Shown: positions 55,009 through 64,000 of the stretch, piece after piece | How positions within the stretch are numbered: the stretch's first letter is position 1 | How the letters are laid out: each line of letters starts with the position of its first letter | Source of the DNA: Candidatus Latescibacterota bacterium | GTDB lineage: Bacteria > Latescibacterota > UBA2968 > UBA8231 | Direction of reading: 5' to 3' | Length of the DNA stretch: 64,000 nt | Assembly (NCBI GenBank): GCA_965197905.1 | Contig: CBDAOB010000003.1 | Coordinates: forward strand, 704,001 to 768,000 | Program-made: the position numbers and the translations under genes | Notes under the pieces: model-generated | Told to the model about the DNA's origin: nothing | Databases searched by the model: none | The model's input: only the letters and a program-made list of their open reading frames with translations

Positions 55009-56754
55009 CTAAAGGAAAGAACTGCGCACCAGTCCCTCCTGCTCTTCCCATTGATGCAGGATGGAGCGGGACCGACGCAAATAGTGACGATAGCGGTCGT
55101 CGAGCAAGTTTTTCGACCTGTTTCCCAAGCGACCTCCAATCAGCGCATTGTATTTTCCCCGGGCTTGGGTAACGCGCCGGCCCTTTGGGTTGACGGCGAT
55201 CGTCATCAAGCGCTGTGAGTTGCCACTCCCGTCGGAGATCTGTAGGGAAAACACCGCCTTGGAGCCGCGCCGGCAGGTGTGCACGTAGGTCCGCACACAG
55301 TGATGCATCGCTTTGCCTTCTGCTACCAGCTCGTGGGTAGTGGTCACCTCCGAGATGGACCATGTGAGCATCTTGTCGGTCTCTTCGTCGTGCTCTGTGA
55401 CGGAAAGCTCACCCACGCCACAGGGTTGCCATTGATTCGAGGGGACCCGTTGATCTCGCACCAACCTCGCATGCCATTGTTCAACGTAGCGCAACAGCTT
55501 GTCCACGCTGCGACTCTTCATCGAGAGATTCGCTTGGAGAGGATCTTGTAACTCTATGCGCCCACCCGGCAAAACCACCTCCTGTCGTTCGAATTTCTGA
55601 TCCTGTATGTAGTCGACGATCGGTCCGATCCATTCGGGATCTAGCATGGGGTGTAACGTCAGCCAATGAATGAAAGTGGACCAGAAGGCCTCGTTCTCGA
55701 GTGATTCTCCAAGGCGGGTGGCGACCACTGCTTCGACCAATTCCTCGGATCCGTCCTGGCCAACGATCTGACCATAGCGCAACGCTTCGAACAGGGAGTA
55801 GCGATCCGGGGCAAGCAGAAACTCATGAGCCATTCGTTTTGTGAGGTTCACCGCGAGATCGGGGGCCGTCCGAATGTTGGCCCCCATACCCACGTGTATG
55901 AACCATCTCTGCTGCCGGTCCGTCTCCAGGGCATCCTCGGTCGGATCATGAAAGAAGGCGGTGTCGAAAAAGGCGGGCACGTGATACCTGGCCAGCAGAT
56001 GGCGGGCCAACGATCCGAACTGAAGGCGGGGATTGTGTCTCTCCGGTCGCCAATGGTCGGGACCGCGCAGCCAGTCCGCCTGCCGTCTGGCAAGAGCGGC
56101 CAGGCCGTCGATCCAGGTATTGCCCGTCCGGGCGCCAAAGCGGGTGATGGCTGGCGTTGAAACATCGAACAGATCCGCCCGCGACCGATCGACATCGAGC
56201 AGTAGGTCGCGAAACGCCTGGCGAACCGGCTGTTGATCGGACAACTGCCCGGCAATCTCCGCGATGCGGGCCATGTACTCGGGTCGCAGATCGTCCGTGG
56301 CAACCGAACCTTCGAAAATCCCGGTGATCGTATCCCGGGGTCGTCGGGTAATCCGGCGCACCTTGCGCAGAACCGCCTGGCTGGTCAGGACGCGTACCAT
56401 GTCCAGCTCTTTGCGTCGTGGACGGTCCCCTTTGTGCAGCGCGTCACTCAAATTCTGCTCCCGACACCAAGCCTGATAGGCCTGCGTCGAACCCAATCCC
56501 AAAGCTTTTACGTGGGCAAGAACCGCTTTGTCCGCCGCCGCCGCTTTAGCATCGCGTTTAACTGCGGCGCGCTCAACCCGGCGATCTTGCCAGCTCTTGT
56601 TGAGGGCAGCCGTAAAACCGTGCTCACGACACCAGTATTGATATTGGGCGACCGTCTGTAGTCCCAGAGACTCGATGTGATCGGTCAGATGAGCATTGGC
56701 CCGTGCCTGAGCACCCCGGCGACGACGTTTCCTTTTTTCGTTGGTCTTTGGCAT
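55009..56754 (-). CDS. PcfJ domain-containing protein (paralogue 2)
   Basis: Collinear with 35711-37315; 'ELVAEGKAMHHCVRTY...QARGKYN'; start placed at MPKTNEK. Confidence 0.8.
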   Translation of the reverse strand: MPKTNEKRKRRRRGAQARANAHLTDHIESLGLQTVAQYQYWCREHGFTAALNKSWQDRRVERAAVKRDAKAAAADKAVLAHVKALGLGSTQAYQAWCREQNLSDALHKGDRPRRKELDMVRVLTSQAVLRKVRRITRRPRDTITGIFEGSVATDDLRPEYMARIAEIAGQLSDQQPVRQAFRDLLLDVDRSRADLFDVSTPAITRFGARTGNTWIDGLAALARRQADWLRGPDHWRPERHNPRLQFGSLARHLLARYHVPAFFDTAFFHDPTEDALETDRQQRWFIHVGMGANIRTAPDLAVNLTKRMAHEFLLAPDRYSLFEALRYGQIVGQDGSEELVEAVVATRLGESLENEAFWSTFIHWLTLHPMLDPEWIGPIVDYIQDQKFERQEVVLPGGRIELQDPLQANLSMKSRSVDKLLRYVEQWHARLVRDQRVPSNQWQPCGVGELSVTEHDEETDKMLTWSISEVTTTHELVAEGKAMHHCVRTYVHTCRRGSKAVFSLQISDGSGNSQRLMTIAVNPKGRRVTQARGKYNALIGGRLGNRSKNLLDDRYRHYLRRSRSILHQWEEQEGLVRSSFL

Positions 56755-56911
56755 CGAAATCGTTGATGGCGGTGTCCAGTCAATCTGCCTCTTCCGCGTG
56801 GTCAATGTCAAGCAGTAGCCTGACCCTCGAAGTTGACCCGGCCTTCCTTTTCGGTTTGATTGAAAACACATCTTCGGCTGTCGGCATTCCTTTTTGCAAA
56901 CTTGGGAAACA

Positions 56912-57940
56912 ATGGTAGAGATTGATGATGATCGTGAGGGGGAAGAGCCCGATATTCCCGTATTGCAAAAGGTGGGTATCGTCATGGTGGCCCTAGGTGA
57001 GGAGGTCTCGGGCGAAGTCATGAAGCACCTCAGCGACTACGAAATCGAAGAGATCACTCAGGCGATCGCCTCCCTCAAGAACATCTCTACCGAGTTGATA
57101 GACCAGGTTCTCGACGAGTTTGAGCAACACTTGATGGCCGGCGAGTGGATAGCTCAGGGCGGCATGGACTTCGCGCGTGCCGCTTTGGAACGCGCCGTGG
57201 GACCGCGACGGGCGCAGGAAATCCTTGAACGGGTCGGCAGCAAGGTCTCCTCCGGGTTCTACATTCTCAAGAATGTCGCATCGGACCAGATCGCCCCGTT
57301 TATTTCCAACGAGCACCCTCAAACCATTGCCCTGATTCTATCTCAGCTGGATTTTGCCCAGAGCGCCGGAATCCTGGCGCAACTTGCGGAGCGCCTGCAG
57401 GCGGATGTCGCCTACCGCCTGGCAACAATGGAGAATATTACGCCCAACGTCATCAAGGAGATCGAAGAAGCCCTCGAACAGTCCTTGAAGGATATTCTTG
57501 GCGGCGATCAGGACGTAGGCGGGCCGAAGGTGGTCGCGGACATACTGAATCTAACCGGTTCCAGCGTGGAAAAGAGTGTTCTCGATCAGATGGATGGTCA
57601 GGATCCGGAAGTGGCCGAAGCCGTCCGCAACCTCATGTTCGTTTTTGCCGACATCGTCAAACTGACCGATCGCGAAATTCAGACTCTGCTGCGGGAAGTC
57701 GATCAGAAGGACCTGGTTATCGCCTTGAAGACTGCCGAGGACGAACTCAAGGACAAGGTGCTGGGCAACATGTCCGAGCGCGTGCGCACCTTCGTAAACG
57801 AAGAGATGGAATTCCTCGGGCCGATGCGTGTAAGCGAGGTCGAAGAGGTTCAACTGAGAGTAGTGCAACAGGTCCGTCAGTTGGAGGAACAAGGTCAGGT
57901 TACGATCGTCCGCGGCGACTCCGAGGATGAGTTCGTATAG
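56912..57940 (+). CDS. fliG: Flagellar motor switch protein FliG or paralogue
   Basis: 'EHPQTIALILS', 'GGPKVVADILN', 'MFVF.D', 'NMSER', 'LGPMRVSEVEE.Q'. Confidence 0.9.
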   Translation: MVEIDDDREGEEPDIPVLQKVGIVMVALGEEVSGEVMKHLSDYEIEEITQAIASLKNISTELIDQVLDEFEQHLMAGEWIAQGGMDFARAALERAVGPRRAQEILERVGSKVSSGFYILKNVASDQIAPFISNEHPQTIALILSQLDFAQSAGILAQLAERLQADVAYRLATMENITPNVIKEIEEALEQSLKDILGGDQDVGGPKVVADILNLTGSSVEKSVLDQMDGQDPEVAEAVRNLMFVFADIVKLTDREIQTLLREVDQKDLVIALKTAEDELKDKVLGNMSERVRTFVNEEMEFLGPMRVSEVEEVQLRVVQQVRQLEEQGQVTIVRGDSEDEFV

Positions 57941-58787: not shown

Positions 58788-60176
58788 TCAGTTGGTAGGC
58801 AACCCCGCAGCCAGCCAAGCTTCGAGTCCACCAACAAAGTCCAAAACCCTGGTTTCGGACCGGTCACGCATGATTAGACTGGTCGCGACCGAAGACCGAT
58901 ATCCGCTGGCGCAATGAATGACCACTTCGCCATTTGGAATCTCCTCCAGCCGCCTGCTGAGCTGACTCAGAGGTAGATTGACGCTCCCGGGGATGTGACT
59001 CTCTTGCCATTCGGCCGGGGCCCGCACATCGATCACCTGCAAAGCCTTCGACTGAAGTCGTTCTGACAACGTCGCGGCCGTGATGCGGTCCACCCTGCAG
59101 ATCAGCTCCTGTTTGGATTCGAGCGCCAGCATGCCGCTCTCCAAATACCCTGCTACCCCATCGAAGCCGATGCGTCCCAACCGCATCGCCGACTCTTCTT
59201 CGCGCCCGGGCTCGGCGATCAGTACGATCGGATCTTCGGCATCCAGCAGGGTGCCCGCCCATGTGGCATATTTTCCCTGGAGACCGACGTTGAGAGACCC
59301 CCTCCAGTGGGCGCCTGCGAACTCGGACGGCTCGCGGGTGTCGAGCAGAATAGCGCCTTGCTGCTGACGCTCGCAGACCTCATCTACAGACAGTCCCTTG
59401 AGCCCGTGACTGAGGGATGTGGCCAGCGTCGGATGTTCCCTGGTGTTCAAAATGGCGTCGTAGGTGAAATAGTCGGGGGTGTCCGGCTGATCGGCGGTGA
59501 CGATGCGAATGAACTCGTCCCTGCTCATCGGCTGCAGCGCATAGTTGTACTGGCGCTGGACGCCGATGGTAGAGACAGTGTCTTCGCTCATGTTCTTGCC
59601 GCACAGCGAGCCCGCTCCGTGTGCCGGATAGACCAGGGTCTCGTTCGGTAGCGGCAGCAGCTTTTGATGCACACTGTCGTACAACAACGCCCCAAGTTCA
59701 TCGGCGCTCCACCCCAACGCGGCGCGAAGATCCGGCCGGCCCACATCGCCAATGAAAAGAGTGTCTCCGGTGAGCACCGCATGGGGTTTGGTGTCATCCG
59801 CTTCCAGATCGTACACGAGAATCGAAATCGACTCGGGTGAGTGCCCGGGGGTCTCTAGAATCTGGAGTCGCACCTGGCCGAACTCGAGGGTGTCCCGGTC
59901 CTTCATCGGCGTAAACTCGTATTCCGCCTGCGCCCTAGATCCCAGATAGATCGTGGTACCCACCTGGTCCCTGAGTTCCAGATGCCCGGCCAGGAAGTCG
60001 GCGTGGAAGTGGCTGAGAAAGACGTGGCGAATCTCCATATCCAGGCTCTGCGCGTCTTCGAGGTAGCGGTCTATATCCCTTTGGGGATCGACAACGGCTG
60101 CAGTTCCGCTCTCCACATCGCCAATTAAGTACGAAGCGTGCGCGAGGCACCCGAGGTAGTACTGATTTAGGATCAT
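58788..60176 (-). CDS. MBL-fold hydrolase / rhodanese fusion (persulfide dioxygenase-sulfurtransferase-like)
   Basis: 'SHFHADF..GH...TPGHSPE...TGDTLFIGDVGRPDL...PAHGAGSLCG' plus two rhodanese domains (CASGYRS). Confidence 0.9.
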   Translation of the reverse strand: MILNQYYLGCLAHASYLIGDVESGTAAVVDPQRDIDRYLEDAQSLDMEIRHVFLSHFHADFLAGHLELRDQVGTTIYLGSRAQAEYEFTPMKDRDTLEFGQVRLQILETPGHSPESISILVYDLEADDTKPHAVLTGDTLFIGDVGRPDLRAALGWSADELGALLYDSVHQKLLPLPNETLVYPAHGAGSLCGKNMSEDTVSTIGVQRQYNYALQPMSRDEFIRIVTADQPDTPDYFTYDAILNTREHPTLATSLSHGLKGLSVDEVCERQQQGAILLDTREPSEFAGAHWRGSLNVGLQGKYATWAGTLLDAEDPIVLIAEPGREEESAMRLGRIGFDGVAGYLESGMLALESKQELICRVDRITAATLSERLQSKALQVIDVRAPAEWQESHIPGSVNLPLSQLSRRLEEIPNGEVVIHCASGYRSSVATSLIMRDRSETRVLDFVGGLEAWLAAGLPTN

Positions 60177-60227
60177 GGTCCTCTCCTATCCAAAAACCCA
60201 AGAAATCCTGGGTTAAAGGTAGGTCGA

Positions 60228-61151
60228 TCAGTCCGGCAAACAATCGAAGTTCTTAAAAATCCACAGCCGGCGCACGGTATTGACCCCCTGCCACTTCTTC
60301 TTCGCTGCTTCCCAGGCCTCGGGAAAGCTATCGCCCCAATTGTGCGCCGGCTCCCAACATCCGTTCTCTGCTTGTGCTTCGATTTCGAACGAGAGGTTTG
60401 CGGTGACCGCATCCTTGTGTTCGGAGAACAACCTGGAGTTTGGCGACGGAATTATCTCGAGGGGAGTGGTGCAGTAGGTGTGCCACTTGGTGGGATCCGT
60501 CTCGATGCTCCGATTCACGATTCCGGGAAGGTGTTTCTGCAACGCCTCCTCCAGAGAGCGGGGCAAAGATTCGACCTCGAACAGTCTGGTGTAACAAGCC
60601 AGATCGTGTACCTGCAGAGTTTCGATTGCAGGGAGACGATCGACTACGGCATCCAGCACCTCCTGCTGGATATCCGCGGTAGATCCGAAATTATACAGAT
60701 AGCCCAATACTTCGGGCCGTGGGTTATCTCGGTAGAAACTCCAGATCTCGTCGAAGTTTTCGGTATAGTGCCACCAGGGGGCGTGTGGTTTGCTGTTGTC
60801 GTGCGGCGTGATGAGCGGCCAGCTCTTGTACTTCTCAACGTAGGACTCAGCCAGAAAGTTCACGGCCTCCTGCGCCAGCTGGTGAGATTTGTCCAGCCCG
60901 AGTTCCATGAAGGTCTGCAGCGCGTGGGTGGTGCTGAGAACGTTCGGCTCGTTCGACCCGAAATCCGACTCGATGGCGCCGAATCCCCCATCCGCATGCC
61001 TGAACTCGGTCAACTCGTCAATAACCTGCTCGGGAGTTCCGCCTTCGAACAGAAACGAGAACTTCGCCTTCTCCAGGGGTCTGGCGTGCGCTTTGATGTA
61101 ACCGGCGGCCCTGTCGAACGCTTCGCGTGAAAACCGGGGCACCTTCGCCAT
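60228..61151 (-). CDS. Hypothetical protein, prenyltransferase/squalene-oxidase-repeat-like helical fold
   Basis: 'ARPLE...F..ADGGFG.IE.D...PHAPWW...Q.ENG.W'. Confidence 0.6.
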   Translation of the reverse strand: MAKVPRFSREAFDRAAGYIKAHARPLEKAKFSFLFEGGTPEQVIDELTEFRHADGGFGAIESDFGSNEPNVLSTTHALQTFMELGLDKSHQLAQEAVNFLAESYVEKYKSWPLITPHDNSKPHAPWWHYTENFDEIWSFYRDNPRPEVLGYLYNFGSTADIQQEVLDAVVDRLPAIETLQVHDLACYTRLFEVESLPRSLEEALQKHLPGIVNRSIETDPTKWHTYCTTPLEIIPSPNSRLFSEHKDAVTANLSFEIEAQAENGCWEPAHNWGDSFPEAWEAAKKKWQGVNTVRRLWIFKNFDCLPD

Positions 61152-61242
61152 GAGAATCTCCTCTCCCAACAATAAATCAACTGCCAAACGGTGGTTGGCA
61201 AATAATCATTACAACTTTCAAGCAGGTTCGCAATAGCAGACC

Positions 61243-61308
61243 TTGCCTTTGAGTCTCCTTAAGCGTATTATTCAACAATCTGGTTTTCTTTAGCGAACTA
61301 AATGGAGG
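61243..61308 (+). promoter_or_regulatory. Sigma70-type promoter and RBS of the RNAP-like gene
   Basis: TTGCCT-N17-TATTAT (61243-61271); GGAGG at 61304-61308. Confidence 0.6.
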
Positions 61309-61312
61309 TTCT

Positions 61313-64000
61313 ATGACTGTCGGGGAATGTGCAACCCATTCAAAGAGATCCGCAACGCTGCGGTTGGGTCCGCTGATGCGCTCGACCGCTGAGGAATTCG
61401 GATCAGCGTTGCGTCGAACCTTGATGCGCTTGCCGGGTCTGGCCGCACGCGCCGTGAAAATGGAGGCGGCTCACGAATTCTCTTTGCTCCCGGGGGTCGT
61501 CGAGGACGCGCTAGAGATCGTGGAGAATCTAAGATTGATCCAGTTCCGGGGTGGCGATGGACCGCACTACGTGACCATCGATGTGGAGGGGCCGGCTGCA
61601 GTGACCGGATCGGATCTGGCTGGTCCCGGACTGCAGGTGGTGAACCCGAATCAACCGATTGCCACGGTGAATCACGGTGGACGCCTCGAAATGAAGGTTG
61701 AGGTGGCTCTCTCGTTGGATCGGGAATCAGGCCGAGACCGTCGCACCGGGGGTTTCCTGGAGGTCGGCGGCGTCTCTCATCCCGTTACTCGGGTGCAGCT
61801 ACACGTGGAAGAGCGCGATAAAGGGGCGTTCTTGAGCTTGAGCGTGGCGACCAACGGAAGCGTCGAGCCCCGGGTGGCCATCGATCAGGCGGCAACTCTG
61901 CTAGCGTCAGTAGCGACAGGCGAAAGGACTCGGGCCCTCTGCCGCCAGGTTTTGAACGCAAAGACGTTGTCGGAGCCGGCGACTAAGGCGCCACCTCCGG
62001 TCCCGACAGCCCGTGACCTGAGCAAGATGCCACCGGGCATCGAAGTTCCAGACCTTACGGAGTTGTGCCACAGTTCGTTCGAATCCTTTGCACAGCGCGG
62101 GGTGGCACCCAGCCGGCGCCGAAACTCGGGGTTGCAACGATTGCTAAAAGAGGCCTTCGCGGTACAGGAGGAAGCCGAGTTCTCCAGCTACACCCTTAGC
62201 GAGCCGCACTCTGAACCCTCGGAATGTGTGAAATACGGTACGAGCTACCAAGCCGAGTTGACGGTTCGTCACAAGCGGAATGGTGCCCATACAGCCGAAG
62301 ATACGGTTGTGGGTCACCTACCCGTGATGACGGCTCGCGGAACCTTCGTGGTCTCTGGTGTGGAGAAGGTGGCGATGGGCGAGTTGGTGGACGCCTGCGC
62401 GAACAGGACCACGCGGGAGAACGATCTGGCCGAGCGCCGTATAAGGCTCGTAGGAGAGCAGCTGTTCGAGGCATTGGCCGGTGCTTTCGACAGTGCCACC
62501 GAGCAGGAGAATGAACTCCGATTTCCTTACTTCGCTGAAACCGTTAGTAGTTTTTTTACCGCAAATCCGTTGGTGCAACGAGCGGAGACCACAAACCCGC
62601 TGGCGCTCTTGACCCAGCTGCGCCGGGTGGTGCAAACGGATGTGGGTCGGCAACGGGGCTATCTGCCGCGCCAGATTCACCGGTCCCATTGGGGCCGTCT
62701 CTGCAGCATCGATACGCCGGAAGGGGAGCGGATCGGTCTGAATCTGACCGTGGCGGTCCTCGCAGGGGTAGACGAGGATGGCTTCCTTACCGCACCGTAC
62801 CGGCGTCGAACGGACGGCGATCTGGCGTATCTCAACGCCGCCGAGCAGGCGGCCACGACCGTCACCGACGGTTGCTGCTCGGATGGTGACCTGGTCGCCC
62901 GCTACGGCGGCAAGATTCTGGCGCTGAAAGCGGGCGAGATCGTGCGAACCGAGGAAGGTGATGTTGAGTACCTCACCACTCACTCGGCGCACACCCTGGG
63001 TCCTTCCGCCAGCCTCATTCCGTTTCTGGCCAACGACGATTCCAACCGTGCGTTGATGGGGAACAATATGCAAAAGCAGGCGCTGCCTCTGCTCCATCCT
63101 CAGGCTCCGATGGTGCGGACGGGAATGGAAGGCCGCGTCGCCACAGATGCGCGCGCCGCCGTTCTGGCGCCCGCTGAAGGGGTGGTTGAGCGGGTGTCGG
63201 CGGAAGAGATCGTCGTCCGCGGTCACGGCGAACACTCCTTTGGACTGGAAGGGTTTGTTCCCTCTGCCCTCAGTACCTGTCAACGGCAACGACCGTTGGT
63301 TCGACGCGGCCAGAGTGTCACCGCAGGTCAGGTCCTGGCGGACGGTCCTGCCACCGACCATGGAGATCTGGCGCTGGGTCGCAACGTCCTGGTCGGTTTC
63401 CTGCCGTGGGATGGGTTCAATTTCGAGGATGCTGTCGTTGTAAGTCAGCGACTGGTTGACGAAGAAGCGTTCACCTCAGTCAAGGTGAAGGAATACATCG
63501 ACGTGATCCGGAATACCGACACAGATCGCCTCTCCATCGGGATCGGCCACTTGCCACGCAGCACCGGTGACAACCTGTCTCCGTCCGGAATCGTACGCGA
63601 GGGAGCGTCGGTCGCGGGAGGCGATATTTTGGTCGCCAAGTCGACCTCCGGAGCGGAGAGGATCGACCGCTCGCTGCGCCTGCCGTCCGGGCATGCGGGC
63701 ACCGTAATCGGAGTCGATCATTTCATCGCGGACCAGGGCGACCCGTTGGCCGCGAATGTCGAGCAGCTCATCAAGATAAGGGTGGCTGTGCGCCGGCCAC
63801 TGAAGGTTGGGGACAAGCTGGCCAGTCGTCATGGCGCCAAGGGAGTGGTGGGATTGGTTCTTCCCGAAGACGAGATGCCGGTGTTGCCCGACGGAAGGGC
63901 GCTGGAGATGTTGGTGAGCCCGCTGGGATTGCCCAGCCGCATGAACTTCGGCCAGATCCTCGAAGCCCACACCGGCTTTGCTGCCCACGCGCTCAATTGC
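61313..64000 (+). CDS. RNA polymerase alpha-NTD fused to a divergent, minimised beta subunit (partial: 896 codons, no stop before window end)
   Basis: Hand translation gives one open frame. Alpha-like: 'GSALRRTLMRLPG...HEFSLLPGVVED..EI..NL...TNGSVEP'. Beta-like: 'GTFVVSGVEKV', 'HWGRLCSIDTPEG.RIGL', 'LIPFLANDDSNRALMG.NMQKQA', 'GFNFEDA', 'GDKLASRHGAKGVV', 'PSRMNFGQILE'. Confidence 0.9.
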   Translation, partial: MTVGECATHSKRSATLRLGPLMRSTAEEFGSALRRTLMRLPGLAARAVKMEAAHEFSLLPGVVEDALEIVENLRLIQFRGGDGPHYVTIDVEGPAAVTGSDLAGPGLQVVNPNQPIATVNHGGRLEMKVEVALSLDRESGRDRRTGGFLEVGGVSHPVTRVQLHVEERDKGAFLSLSVATNGSVEPRVAIDQAATLLASVATGERTRALCRQVLNAKTLSEPATKAPPPVPTARDLSKMPPGIEVPDLTELCHSSFESFAQRGVAPSRRRNSGLQRLLKEAFAVQEEAEFSSYTLSEPHSEPSECVKYGTSYQAELTVRHKRNGAHTAEDTVVGHLPVMTARGTFVVSGVEKVAMGELVDACANRTTRENDLAERRIRLVGEQLFEALAGAFDSATEQENELRFPYFAETVSSFFTANPLVQRAETTNPLALLTQLRRVVQTDVGRQRGYLPRQIHRSHWGRLCSIDTPEGERIGLNLTVAVLAGVDEDGFLTAPYRRRTDGDLAYLNAAEQAATTVTDGCCSDGDLVARYGGKILALKAGEIVRTEEGDVEYLTTHSAHTLGPSASLIPFLANDDSNRALMGNNMQKQALPLLHPQAPMVRTGMEGRVATDARAAVLAPAEGVVERVSAEEIVVRGHGEHSFGLEGFVPSALSTCQRQRPLVRRGQSVTAGQVLADGPATDHGDLALGRNVLVGFLPWDGFNFEDAVVVSQRLVDEEAFTSVKVKEYIDVIRNTDTDRLSIGIGHLPRSTGDNLSPSGIVREGASVAGGDILVAKSTSGAERIDRSLRLPSGHAGTVIGVDHFIADQGDPLAANVEQLIKIRVAVRRPLKVGDKLASRHGAKGVVGLVLPEDEMPVLPDGRALEMLVSPLGLPSRMNFGQILEAHTGFAAHALNC

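Follow-up and report, generated by a model that had tools for sequence, protein, structure and literature searches.

Does a bacterium that already makes an RNA polymerase (RNAP) core carry a second one in a single gene? Textbook bacteria have one RNAP core, built from separate α, β and β′ chains. The question is raised by a gene at the right-hand end of a 64,000-nucleotide stretch of DNA from a Candidatus Latescibacterota bacterium (the window, G000:C3:704001-768000, where G000 is the window's own genome, a metagenome-type assembly that is 91% complete with 4.5% contamination). An original prediction, made from the letters of the window alone, described this gene as a stand-alone fusion of the α N-terminal domain (αNTD) to β. 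The complete open reading frame (ORF), which extends beyond the window, joins αNTD, β and β′ in one chain. From sequence comparison and structure models, we consider it probable, at roughly 0.7, that this chain is an accessory counterpart of the multisubunit RNAP core of bacteria, made as a single polypeptide.

Three subunits in one reading frame

The ORF runs uninterrupted for 1917 codons (G000:C3:765313-771066), and its end would equal window position 67066. Its first 896 codons form the open frame that the original prediction had noted, with an ATG start and no stop within the window. Because Rpb1 domains 2-5 and an FNADFDGD motif come after β in the same ORF, the gene is an αNTD::β::β′ triple fusion, and the label of a stand-alone α::β fusion has to be given up. 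The prediction had suggested looking further right for the β C terminus and an NADFDGD motif; both lie in the same ORF, the latter unbroken in the translation and within β′ as delimited by Pfam past the window end.

At the N terminus, Pfam places RNA_pol_A_bac at residues 52-138 (E 2.3e-15) and RNA_pol_L at residues 20-197 (E 6.3e-8), and the fusion covers positions 3-202 of the 298 in the NCBIfam rpoA model TIGR02027. There is no Pfam match to the α C-terminal domain (αCTD, PF03118) in the fusion, and its alignment with the host RpoA stops at the NTD. Pfam and TIGR02027 therefore agree with the earlier assignment of codons ~1-200 to an RpoA NTD that lacks an αCTD. The helix that follows (residues 204-214) is an addition conserved across the family. 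A Pro/Ala-rich stretch proposed as the linker does exist at residues ~220-245, but only ~10 of its residues (~221-230) have low confidence in the model.

By superposition β starts at residue ~231; it ends at residue ~1046, and β′ occupies residues ~1050-1917, beyond the window. Within β, Pfam finds Rpb2_3 (residues 423-485) and Rpb2_6 (residues 621-892, E 7.9e-59); on the full ORF these are followed by Rpb2_7 and then by Rpb1_2, Rpb1_3, Rpb1_4 and Rpb1_5, with E values down to 5e-79. The HIELA..HPW-type motif of β′ lies at residues ~1112-1123. Of the domain profiles that the prediction had named, RNA_pol_L, RNA_pol_A_bac and the Rpb2 domains 3, 6 and 7 are matched, and the RpoB blocks that it had read, with GFNFED, GDKLASRHGAKG and PSRMNFGQ, are found in the translation.

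The active-centre motifs are retained well beyond this one genome. We compared them in alignment A1, which holds 22 family members at a mean column identity of 58%. Those of β are given in Table 1. In β′, FNADFDGD (residues 1325-1332) corresponds to an NAD[F/Y]DGD motif present in 21 of the 21 family sequences that cover the site. The bridge helix, GARRGLADCTLKAARSGYLFKR, aligns throughout the family and is modelled as a long helix (residues ~1600-1635); the second β′ Cys cluster and a short trigger loop without an insert also align throughout. In conserved blocks the fusion is 36-46% identical to canonical β and β′, and 42-45% identical to canonical βs. Judged by these motifs, the two-barrel active centre is intact family-wide.

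Structure prediction leads to the same picture. Each half of the chain was modelled with AlphaFold2 on the basis of family alignments. The model of residues 1-1050 has a predicted local distance difference test (pLDDT) value of 82.7 and a predicted template modelling (pTM) score of 0.83, with the αNTD mostly at pLDDT 85-94; that of residues 1041-1917 has pLDDT 84.1 and pTM 0.82. Residues 231-960 superpose on solved β chains with Z 37.8-40.6 and a root-mean-square deviation of 2.2-3.6 Å over 605-729 aligned residues (with Z ~40, 2.5-3.0 Å over ~720 residues), a span that corresponds to residues 1-1006 of Thermus thermophilus β and 10-1244 of Escherichia coli β. The β′ half (residues 1041-1917) matches solved β′ chains with a Foldseek E of 5e-55 and TMq 0.75-0.83. 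Modelling had been among the checks proposed for this locus, and both halves are confident, match solved chains and are predicted to fold like β and β′. Long low-confidence stretches are limited to residues 957-1011 and ~1764-1780. The second is the trigger loop; the first is the β C-terminal segment, which packs against β′, and β′ is missing from that half-model. A helical hairpin is predicted at residues ~1153-1188, at the position of the clamp helices. A predicted complex of the fusion αNTD with the host RpoA NTD scored 0.07, which is evidence neither way.

Around this centre the chain is heavily trimmed, as read from alignments of the fusion to the host's own β, β′ and RpoA: the β and β′ equivalents together amount to ~1690 residues, compared with 2650 in the host pair. 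From the N-terminal third of β ~245 residues are missing, which removes the lobe and a large part of the protrusion. The flap-tip segment between VGK and DASLK, 28 residues long in the host, has 8 in the query and ~6-16 in the family, and the ~120-residue insert that precedes GDK..RHG in the host β is absent. In β′, the first ~95 residues, including the four-Cys zinc ribbon (CHCGKY...CDRCG), have no counterpart, ~100 residues behind the HIELA motif are missing, and the lid and rudder loops are partly deleted. Also gone are a ~175-residue trigger-loop insert, the jaw, the β′ C-terminal tail and the αCTD. In the first clamp helix the host basic run YRRVINRNNR is replaced by YLALAAVNDI, with LQEAVDxL retained. 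Pfam detects no Rpb1_1, Rpb2_2 or Rpb2_45 in the fusion and leaves Rpb2_1 under its cut-off; in precomputed Pfam lists, PF04997, PF04563, PF04561 and PF10385 appear in no family row among the matches listed, whereas canonical rows carry them. We take the β flap tip to be the dock of σ region 4 and the β′ clamp helices to be that of σ region 2. With flap tip, zinc ribbon and αCTD gone, the chain would therefore be unable to initiate by the canonical σ region 4/-35 route or by UP-element and activator routes.

Both expression signals claimed earlier, a promoter-like element and a ribosome-binding site, can be located upstream of the gene (Table 1). The promoter candidate is a consensus match only, and the σ70 consensus may not be the phylum's own; the Shine-Dalgarno-like element is seen directly in the sequence. 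The GC content of the fusion is ordinary, with no anomaly.

Table 1. Features of the fusion gene within the window (window positions; residues numbered from the ATG).
Feature	Position	Strand	Basis or remark
σ70-like promoter candidate TTGCCT-17-TATTAT	61243..61271	+	9/12 consensus matches; 1 site vs 0.2 expected in shuffles
Shine-Dalgarno-like GGAGG	61304..61308	+	4 nt 5' of ATG
αNTD::β part of fusion ORF in window	61313..64000	+	ATG start, 896 codons, stop-free to window edge
RpoA N-terminal (assembly/dimerisation) domain, residues 1-205	61313..61927	+	Pfam PF01000, PF01193; TIGR02027; host RpoA alignment
Connector, residues 204-230	61922..62002	+	Helix 204-214, short strand, ~10-residue low-confidence tether (model and family alignment)
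Trimmed β, residues 231-896 in window	62003..64000	+	Pfam; structural superposition of residues 231-960
β motif GFNFED, residues 701-706	63413..63430	+	N[F/Y]ED in 22/22 family sequences
β motif GDKLASRHGAKG, residues 833-844	63809..63844	+	G-D-K-L-x-x-R-H-G-x-K-G invariant in 22/22
β motif PSRMNFGQ, residues 874-881	63932..63955	+	P, S, R, N invariant in alignment A1

A paralogue under purifying selection

The host has a complete canonical set elsewhere. On contig C5, rpoB (1835 bits), rpoC (1766 bits) and rpoA (377 bits) all score over their curated cut-offs, and the canonical β and β′ are separate proteins of 1266 and 1384 residues. The fusion matches 22 NCBIfam equivalog models and reaches the cut-off of none. 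It scores 638.8 against a cut-off of 801.15 for rpoB (TIGR02013), 486.3 against 963.5 for rpoC (TIGR02386) and 93.7 against 227.8 for rpoA (TIGR02027). For the full-length β::β′ fusion models the distances are larger still (NF007172, 789.8 bits against 5372; NF011417, 741.9 against 4632). The fusion is thus a paralogue and not the cell's housekeeping RNAP, and the separate rpoA, rpoB and rpoC loci that the original prediction had wished to see confirmed are all present on one contig.

The architecture is shared by a family of proteins. A search of a protein collection, in which 7997 candidates were scored and 334 reached E <= 0.001 (the best 120 of the 334 being listed), returned at least 15 full-length α::β::β′ clusters of 1917-2003 residues at 43-100% identity. 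At least six further clusters are α-less β::β′ forms of 1589-1712 residues that begin exactly at the β N terminus, and two truncated forms (P0005 and P0025) occur among the matches listed. Source names among these matches are just 'hypothetical protein' and 'RNA polymerase beta subunit'. In an exhaustive HMMER search with residues 1-1100, only a handful of 50%-identity clusters outscore canonical βs.

Selection was estimated with a Nei-Gojobori script against the orthologue in a genome of the same genus (G002, 83% identity). The ratio of nonsynonymous to synonymous substitution rates (dN/dS) is 0.219 overall, with a dS of 0.43, and it is below 1 in every part of the chain: 0.33 in the αNTD, 0.44 in the linker, 0.21 in β, 0.20 at the junction and 0.19 in β′. 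For the same genome pair, dN/dS is 0.047 for rpoB (dS 0.39), 0.032 for rpoC (dS 0.48), 0.028 for FliG and 0.11-0.17 for three neighbours, and dS across genes ranges over 0.23-0.48. The whole chain is under purifying selection and the gene has co-diverged with the genome. Family-wide conservation under such selection, together with intact catalytic motifs, marks it as a real, selected gene.

The join between α and β is seen in independent assemblies of public sequencing runs from two other studies. Record 4 of contig set X1 spans the junction (61202-62754) with 0 differences, and record 23 of X6, from another study, spans it (61220-62644) with 54 differences. Contigs of run X3 end at 61934 and resume at 61978, and run X5 fills 17 of 30 bins; we treated these as coverage holes. 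The original prediction had staked itself on three points, namely a junction crossed by reads, homologues that share the fusion without dN/dS drifting to ~1, and another rpoB in the genome. It survives on all three, because the junction is bridged (X1, X6), at least 15 clusters share the architecture with dN/dS at 0.22 rather than ~1, and the canonical rpoB, at 1835 bits, is a separate gene.

Distribution, neighbourhood and relatives

With the clamp-segment alignment A2 as a family-specific probe, the fusion was found in four of the 168 phylum genomes, one of them G000 itself. All four carriers belong to one family (3 of 75 genomes without G000, compared with 0 of 92 in 13 other families). They fall in three genera, each of which also has members where the fusion was not found, and two of the 40 nearest relatives carry it. 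Three related loci in species-representative genomes, found with one peptide pattern, are all Candidatus Latescibacterota by record title. The contig scans of genomes (3 loci) and metagenomes (8 loci) used one or two peptide patterns, and their counts are lower bounds. In G001, a genome of the same genus that is 89% complete, Ldh_2 and DUF481 are syntenic but the fusion between them is missing. At this place (G001:C15:41500-47500, L135) two unrelated ORFs of 280 and 346 residues stand where G000 has an MBL-rhodanese gene, a 319-residue ORF and the fusion. The replaced block extends from window 58788-61187 on to G000:C3:771066, and two TonB-receptor/glyoxalase genes on its far side also differ.

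The fusion gene is solitary between divergently oriented genes. Its neighbours encode FliG, DUF481, MBL-rhodanese, an uncharacterised ORF, Ldh_2 and TonB receptors; no ribosomal-protein gene or rplL is among them, in keeping with the earlier remark that the usual rpoA and rplL context is missing. This neighbourhood is common only within the genus; around loci L031, L033 and L036 the genes are unrelated ones of metabolism and transport. No gene family is common to the α-containing loci outside the genus, and no sigma, α-like or other candidate partner gene was seen adjoining the fusion. The divergent 319-residue ORF (window 60228-61187, minus strand) was considered as a specific partner and rejected, as it occurs in 64 of the 168 phylum genomes compared with 4 for the fusion. 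It has no Pfam, PADLOC or PHROG match, and its Atlas neighbours are only 'hypothetical'. A 670-residue ORF at window 55009-57021 (minus strand) contains a PcfJ-like domain (E 1.4e-11), a family known from conjugative plasmids, and has weak matches to function-less PHROGs; no other mobile-element gene was noticed near it.

A β-core tree (FastTree, 125 rows, 708 columns, with 14 fragments or near-duplicates and the alternate rows of 164 canonical-like sequences excluded) places 17 α-containing and six α-less forms in one clade (support 100, starred), the α-less forms lying within a polytomy. The nearest neighbour of this family is another α-fused chain, P0166 (support 94). The host rpoB groups with canonical-like sequences in a cluster of 91 rows (support 89), and the fusion family lies outside it; the separating branches have support of 80-94, none starred, and the root is arbitrary. 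The host β reaches 69% identity with another canonical β in the tree set, well over the values for the fusion. Together, these comparisons support an origin of the fusion other than recent duplication of the host rpoB. In a viral collection no relative of the fusion was confirmed, either in 1 or in 67 pattern matches (P0002 and alignment A2). Apparent viral relatives of the longer P0026-type chain, at 45-47% identity, were discarded, since they proved to be ordinary rpoB and rpoC genes, each in its own frame and neither joined to an α; the L045 β from that viral-looking set groups with canonical βs in the tree.

Less trimmed α-fused single chains occur among metagenomic proteins (P0026, P0027, P0030, P0142, P0149, P0166, P0170 and P0199). 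They have 1948-2437 residues and Rpb1_1, mostly also with Rpb2_1 or Rpb2_2, and lie outside the canonical β cluster, close to the query family in the tree. P0142 has a second, Rpb11-like module (PF13656, residues 234-301) behind its αNTD, P0027 has an αCTD at its far C terminus, past β′, and P0199 (1005 residues) is α::β only. Two α-less forms on metagenome contigs, L035:3423-10507 and L037:2-7277 (1643 and 1659+ residues), have a gene for a CapP-like IrrE/M78 peptidase ~1.2-1.4 kb downstream, with a weakly similar uncharacterised ORF in between. The two CapP-like genes are 58% identical to each other and match PADLOC capP over the full length (E 2e-42); CapP is a protease that senses DNA damage and relieves the repression of CBASS operons.

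A third RNAP-like gene of this genome lies outside the window: a mini β::β′ single chain at G000:C5:903587-907203 (L041:8587-12203, minus strand). Its product P0138 has 1019 residues counted from a GTG, or 1007 from an ATG as in P0286, with Rpb2_3, Rpb2_6, Rpb1_2 and an unbroken MNADFDGDQ. The ATG overlaps the TGA of an upstream gene for an extracytoplasmic function (ECF) sigma factor (ATGA), and four of the six loci inspected retain an ECF neighbour. This family is large. At least 120 clusters, with identities of 44-59% and no name other than 'hypothetical', belong to it, and relatives come from Hydrogenedentes, Chloroflexi, Armatimonadetes, Poribacteria and others. Of 41 genomes searched, counting G000, 18 have this gene, and it is only 27-46% identical, in patches, to the 1917-residue fusion. 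Matches to canonical rpoB and rpoC lie in one stop-free frame of ~2635-2700 residues in 17 of 40 relatives (G003, G007, G012, G016, G019, G020, G021, G023, G027, G030, G031, G033, G034 and G036-G039), with one TAG within a match in G033. This would mean that housekeeping β and β′ are fused in many class members, unlike in G000.

Readings of the fused chain

An accessory polymerase that might be a single chain, with β′ perhaps following, had already been proposed for this locus; the discovery of β′ in the same ORF and of canonical rpoA, rpoB and rpoC elsewhere gives that proposal its substance. To judge from its motifs, such an enzyme would make RNA on a DNA template with the two-metal catalysis common to these polymerases. 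The E. coli enzyme assembles in the order α, α2, α2β, α2ββ′, and the fused αNTD could take over, in cis, the platform role that free α plays in that assembly. Because only ~10 low-confidence residues separate the connector helix from the first residue of β in the model, the αNTD is probably held near the β N terminus as such a platform, and the high pTM of the model of residues 1-1050 agrees with a fixed α-β arrangement. Initiation may be sigma-independent, may use clamp-helix contact only, or may depend on a factor encoded away from the fusion. Given its rarity, variable locus and relaxed constraint, the gene is dispensable and specialised, not housekeeping. A bolder version is that one family of free-living Latescibacterota runs a self-sufficient single α-β-β′ enzyme, able to start without σ region 4, αCTD or free α; we advance this tentatively, at somewhat less than even odds.

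Several observations weigh against an accessory single-chain polymerase. A canonical core has two αNTDs and the fusion chain has one; the genome has no further α-like module except the host rpoA (PF13656 has 0 matches, and PF01193 matches only rpoA and the fusion). The trigger-loop His is found in just 7 of 21 family members (the six α-less forms and P0013), and the query has Thr. Trimming has affected the lid, the rudder, the zinc ribbon and the flap tip, and E. coli deletion work indicates that the opening of promoters or the displacement of RNA could suffer from it. Although constraint is real, it is relaxed, with dN/dS ~5-7 times that of the housekeeping subunits. Finally, 164 of the 168 genomes searched in the phylum lack the fusion, and its role is therefore not generally needed.

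The missing second α leads to an alternative, in which the chain would borrow the host RpoA (as second α, with one αCTD) and a host sigma factor on the clamp hairpin, and would act as a promoter-specific core for a subset of ordinary genes. We regard this as possible but rather doubtful, and the suggestion that its targets would be, for example, promoters without need of a -35/region 4 contact as doubtful to the same degree; E. coli core without the flap tip reportedly still transcribes extended -10 promoters. Arguing for borrowing, the αNTD retains LRRxL and HEF..GVxED..I.ENL as in the host RpoA, which suggests a maintained partner surface, the predicted hairpin is at the clamp-helix position, and the genome offers neither another α-like module nor a dedicated factor gene adjoining the fusion. 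Counter to this, the basic run of the first clamp helix has been replaced, and flap tip and zinc ribbon are missing. A different role, that of a back-up polymerase insensitive to inhibitors of the host RNAP, for example phage-encoded ones or antibiotics of rifamycin/sorangicin type, appears unlikely to us. The jaw, flap tip and β′ N terminus missing here are, we presume, targets of several known inhibitors, and the rifampicin-cluster segment changes from THKRRLSALGPGG in the host to TQLRRVVQTDVG in the fusion, its His and Ser positions being what we take to be classic resistance sites. The patchy, accessory distribution fits a conflict-related gene, as does the CapP-like gene near two α-less loci; yet neither the fusion nor its neighbours have a match in the defence library (PADLOC), and the α-containing loci show no biosynthetic, phage or defence-island context.

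Patchiness could also reflect descent from a mobile element or virus, with a polymerase that transcribes or primes that element and is only a passenger in these genomes. The family's place in the tree, apart from the host rpoB and beside other α-fused chains, is consistent with this, as are the variability of the locus within the genus and the PcfJ-like ORF 4.3 kb upstream. Nevertheless, we find it improbable: no relative was confirmed in the viral collection, GC is ordinary, the deep branches have support of 80-94 with none starred, and no integrase, capsid or replication genes lie beside the fusion in 7 loci. Moreover, the dS of the fusion equals that of housekeeping genes between G000 and G002, and inheritance has therefore been vertical at least within the genus. 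That the protein does not polymerise at all, and acts as a decoy or scaffold soaking up RNAP-binding factors or nucleic acids, is very improbable. The deletion of many regulatory surfaces and the variable trigger-loop His would suit a decoy, but all metal- and substrate-binding motifs, which a decoy could do without, vary little or not at all across sequences of 43-100% identity, and the surfaces for sigma, NusA or phage inhibitors are the very ones that are missing. The mimic or decoy raised by the original prediction thus finds no support in a family in which all catalytic motifs are conserved. Least credible, to the point that we attach almost no weight to it, is an assembly chimera or decaying pseudogene. 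It would draw on the metagenome-type assembly and the X3 contig breaks, and is opposed by at least 15 independent clusters of the same architecture, two contigs across the junction and 1917 uninterrupted codons at a dN/dS of 0.22.

Of the known systems, the canonical core (α2ββ′ω) has the same folds, catalytic motifs and bacterial-type αNTD as the fusion, but consists of five chains, whereas the fusion is one chain with one αNTD and no αCTD. Housekeeping β::β′ fusions reportedly occur in Helicobacter and Wolbachia. As in the fusion, the β C terminus is joined to the β′ N terminus in one ORF; such enzymes are, however, the sole RNAP of the cell, full length (~2800-2900 residues) and without α, whereas the fusion is trimmed and has α. 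Nocardia rpoB2 is said to be an extra, full-length rpoB copy in actinomycetes; it and the RpoA copies of Francisella are full-length single subunits in a normal enzyme, unlike the self-contained three-subunit chain described here. Francisella's two RpoA paralogues do resemble the fusion in providing a second subunit copy (PMC3294249).

Among phage and viral enzymes, the RNAPs of YonO (SPβ prophage), crAss-like phages and P23-45 have both barrels in one chain, are accessory and carry few regulatory modules, as the fusion does, but they are phage-borne and so far from cellular RNAP that homology is hard to detect (PMC5467207; PMC7481178; 10.1101/2022.12.01.518664). Compared with YonO and crAss, the fusion has strong Pfam matches, an αNTD, twice the ~100 kDa of YonO and no phage context. 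Jumbo-phage RNAPs (phiKZ, AR9) are also streamlined, with no host sigma or αCTD-type regulation, but they are viral, have no α homologue and split β and β′ into more pieces, whereas the fusion is a single chain (PMC7598289; PMC5449584; PMC7824862). Vaccinia Rpo35 unites Rpb3-like and Rpb11-like features in one chain, a merged α-like platform, without being joined to catalytic subunits (PMC13374769); in the fusion α is joined to β.

The statement that no α-β fusion had been described agrees with our search of open full-text literature (supplements outside its scope), which turned up no α-β or α-β-β′ fusion. In their accessible parts, a 2026 review of α-like subunits does not contain the words 'fused' or 'fusion' (PMC13374769), a 2024 survey of β/β′ architectures gives only β-β′ fusions, in Wolinella and Ca. 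Adlerbacteria (PMC11515920), and a Caudovirales RNAP paper and a jumbo-phage survey cover crAss, YonO and split phage enzymes (PMC7481178; PMC7824862). The fusion makes the assembly-platform role of α testable in a natural, cis-tethered form. If it is indeed a polymerase, it would reveal which core modules are dispensable in nature around a kept active centre, and it would give structural and synthetic biology a single-gene, cellular-type RNAP of ~210 kDa. If the self-sufficient version were true, then together with the mini β::β′ and ECF-sigma operon there would be three different cellular-type catalytic cores per cell, and the fusion would offer a naturally occurring plan for a minimal bacterial core enzyme. 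This would raise the question of which templates a second or third transcription machine serves in an uncultured phylum, how it chooses its start sites and whether it escapes inhibitors.

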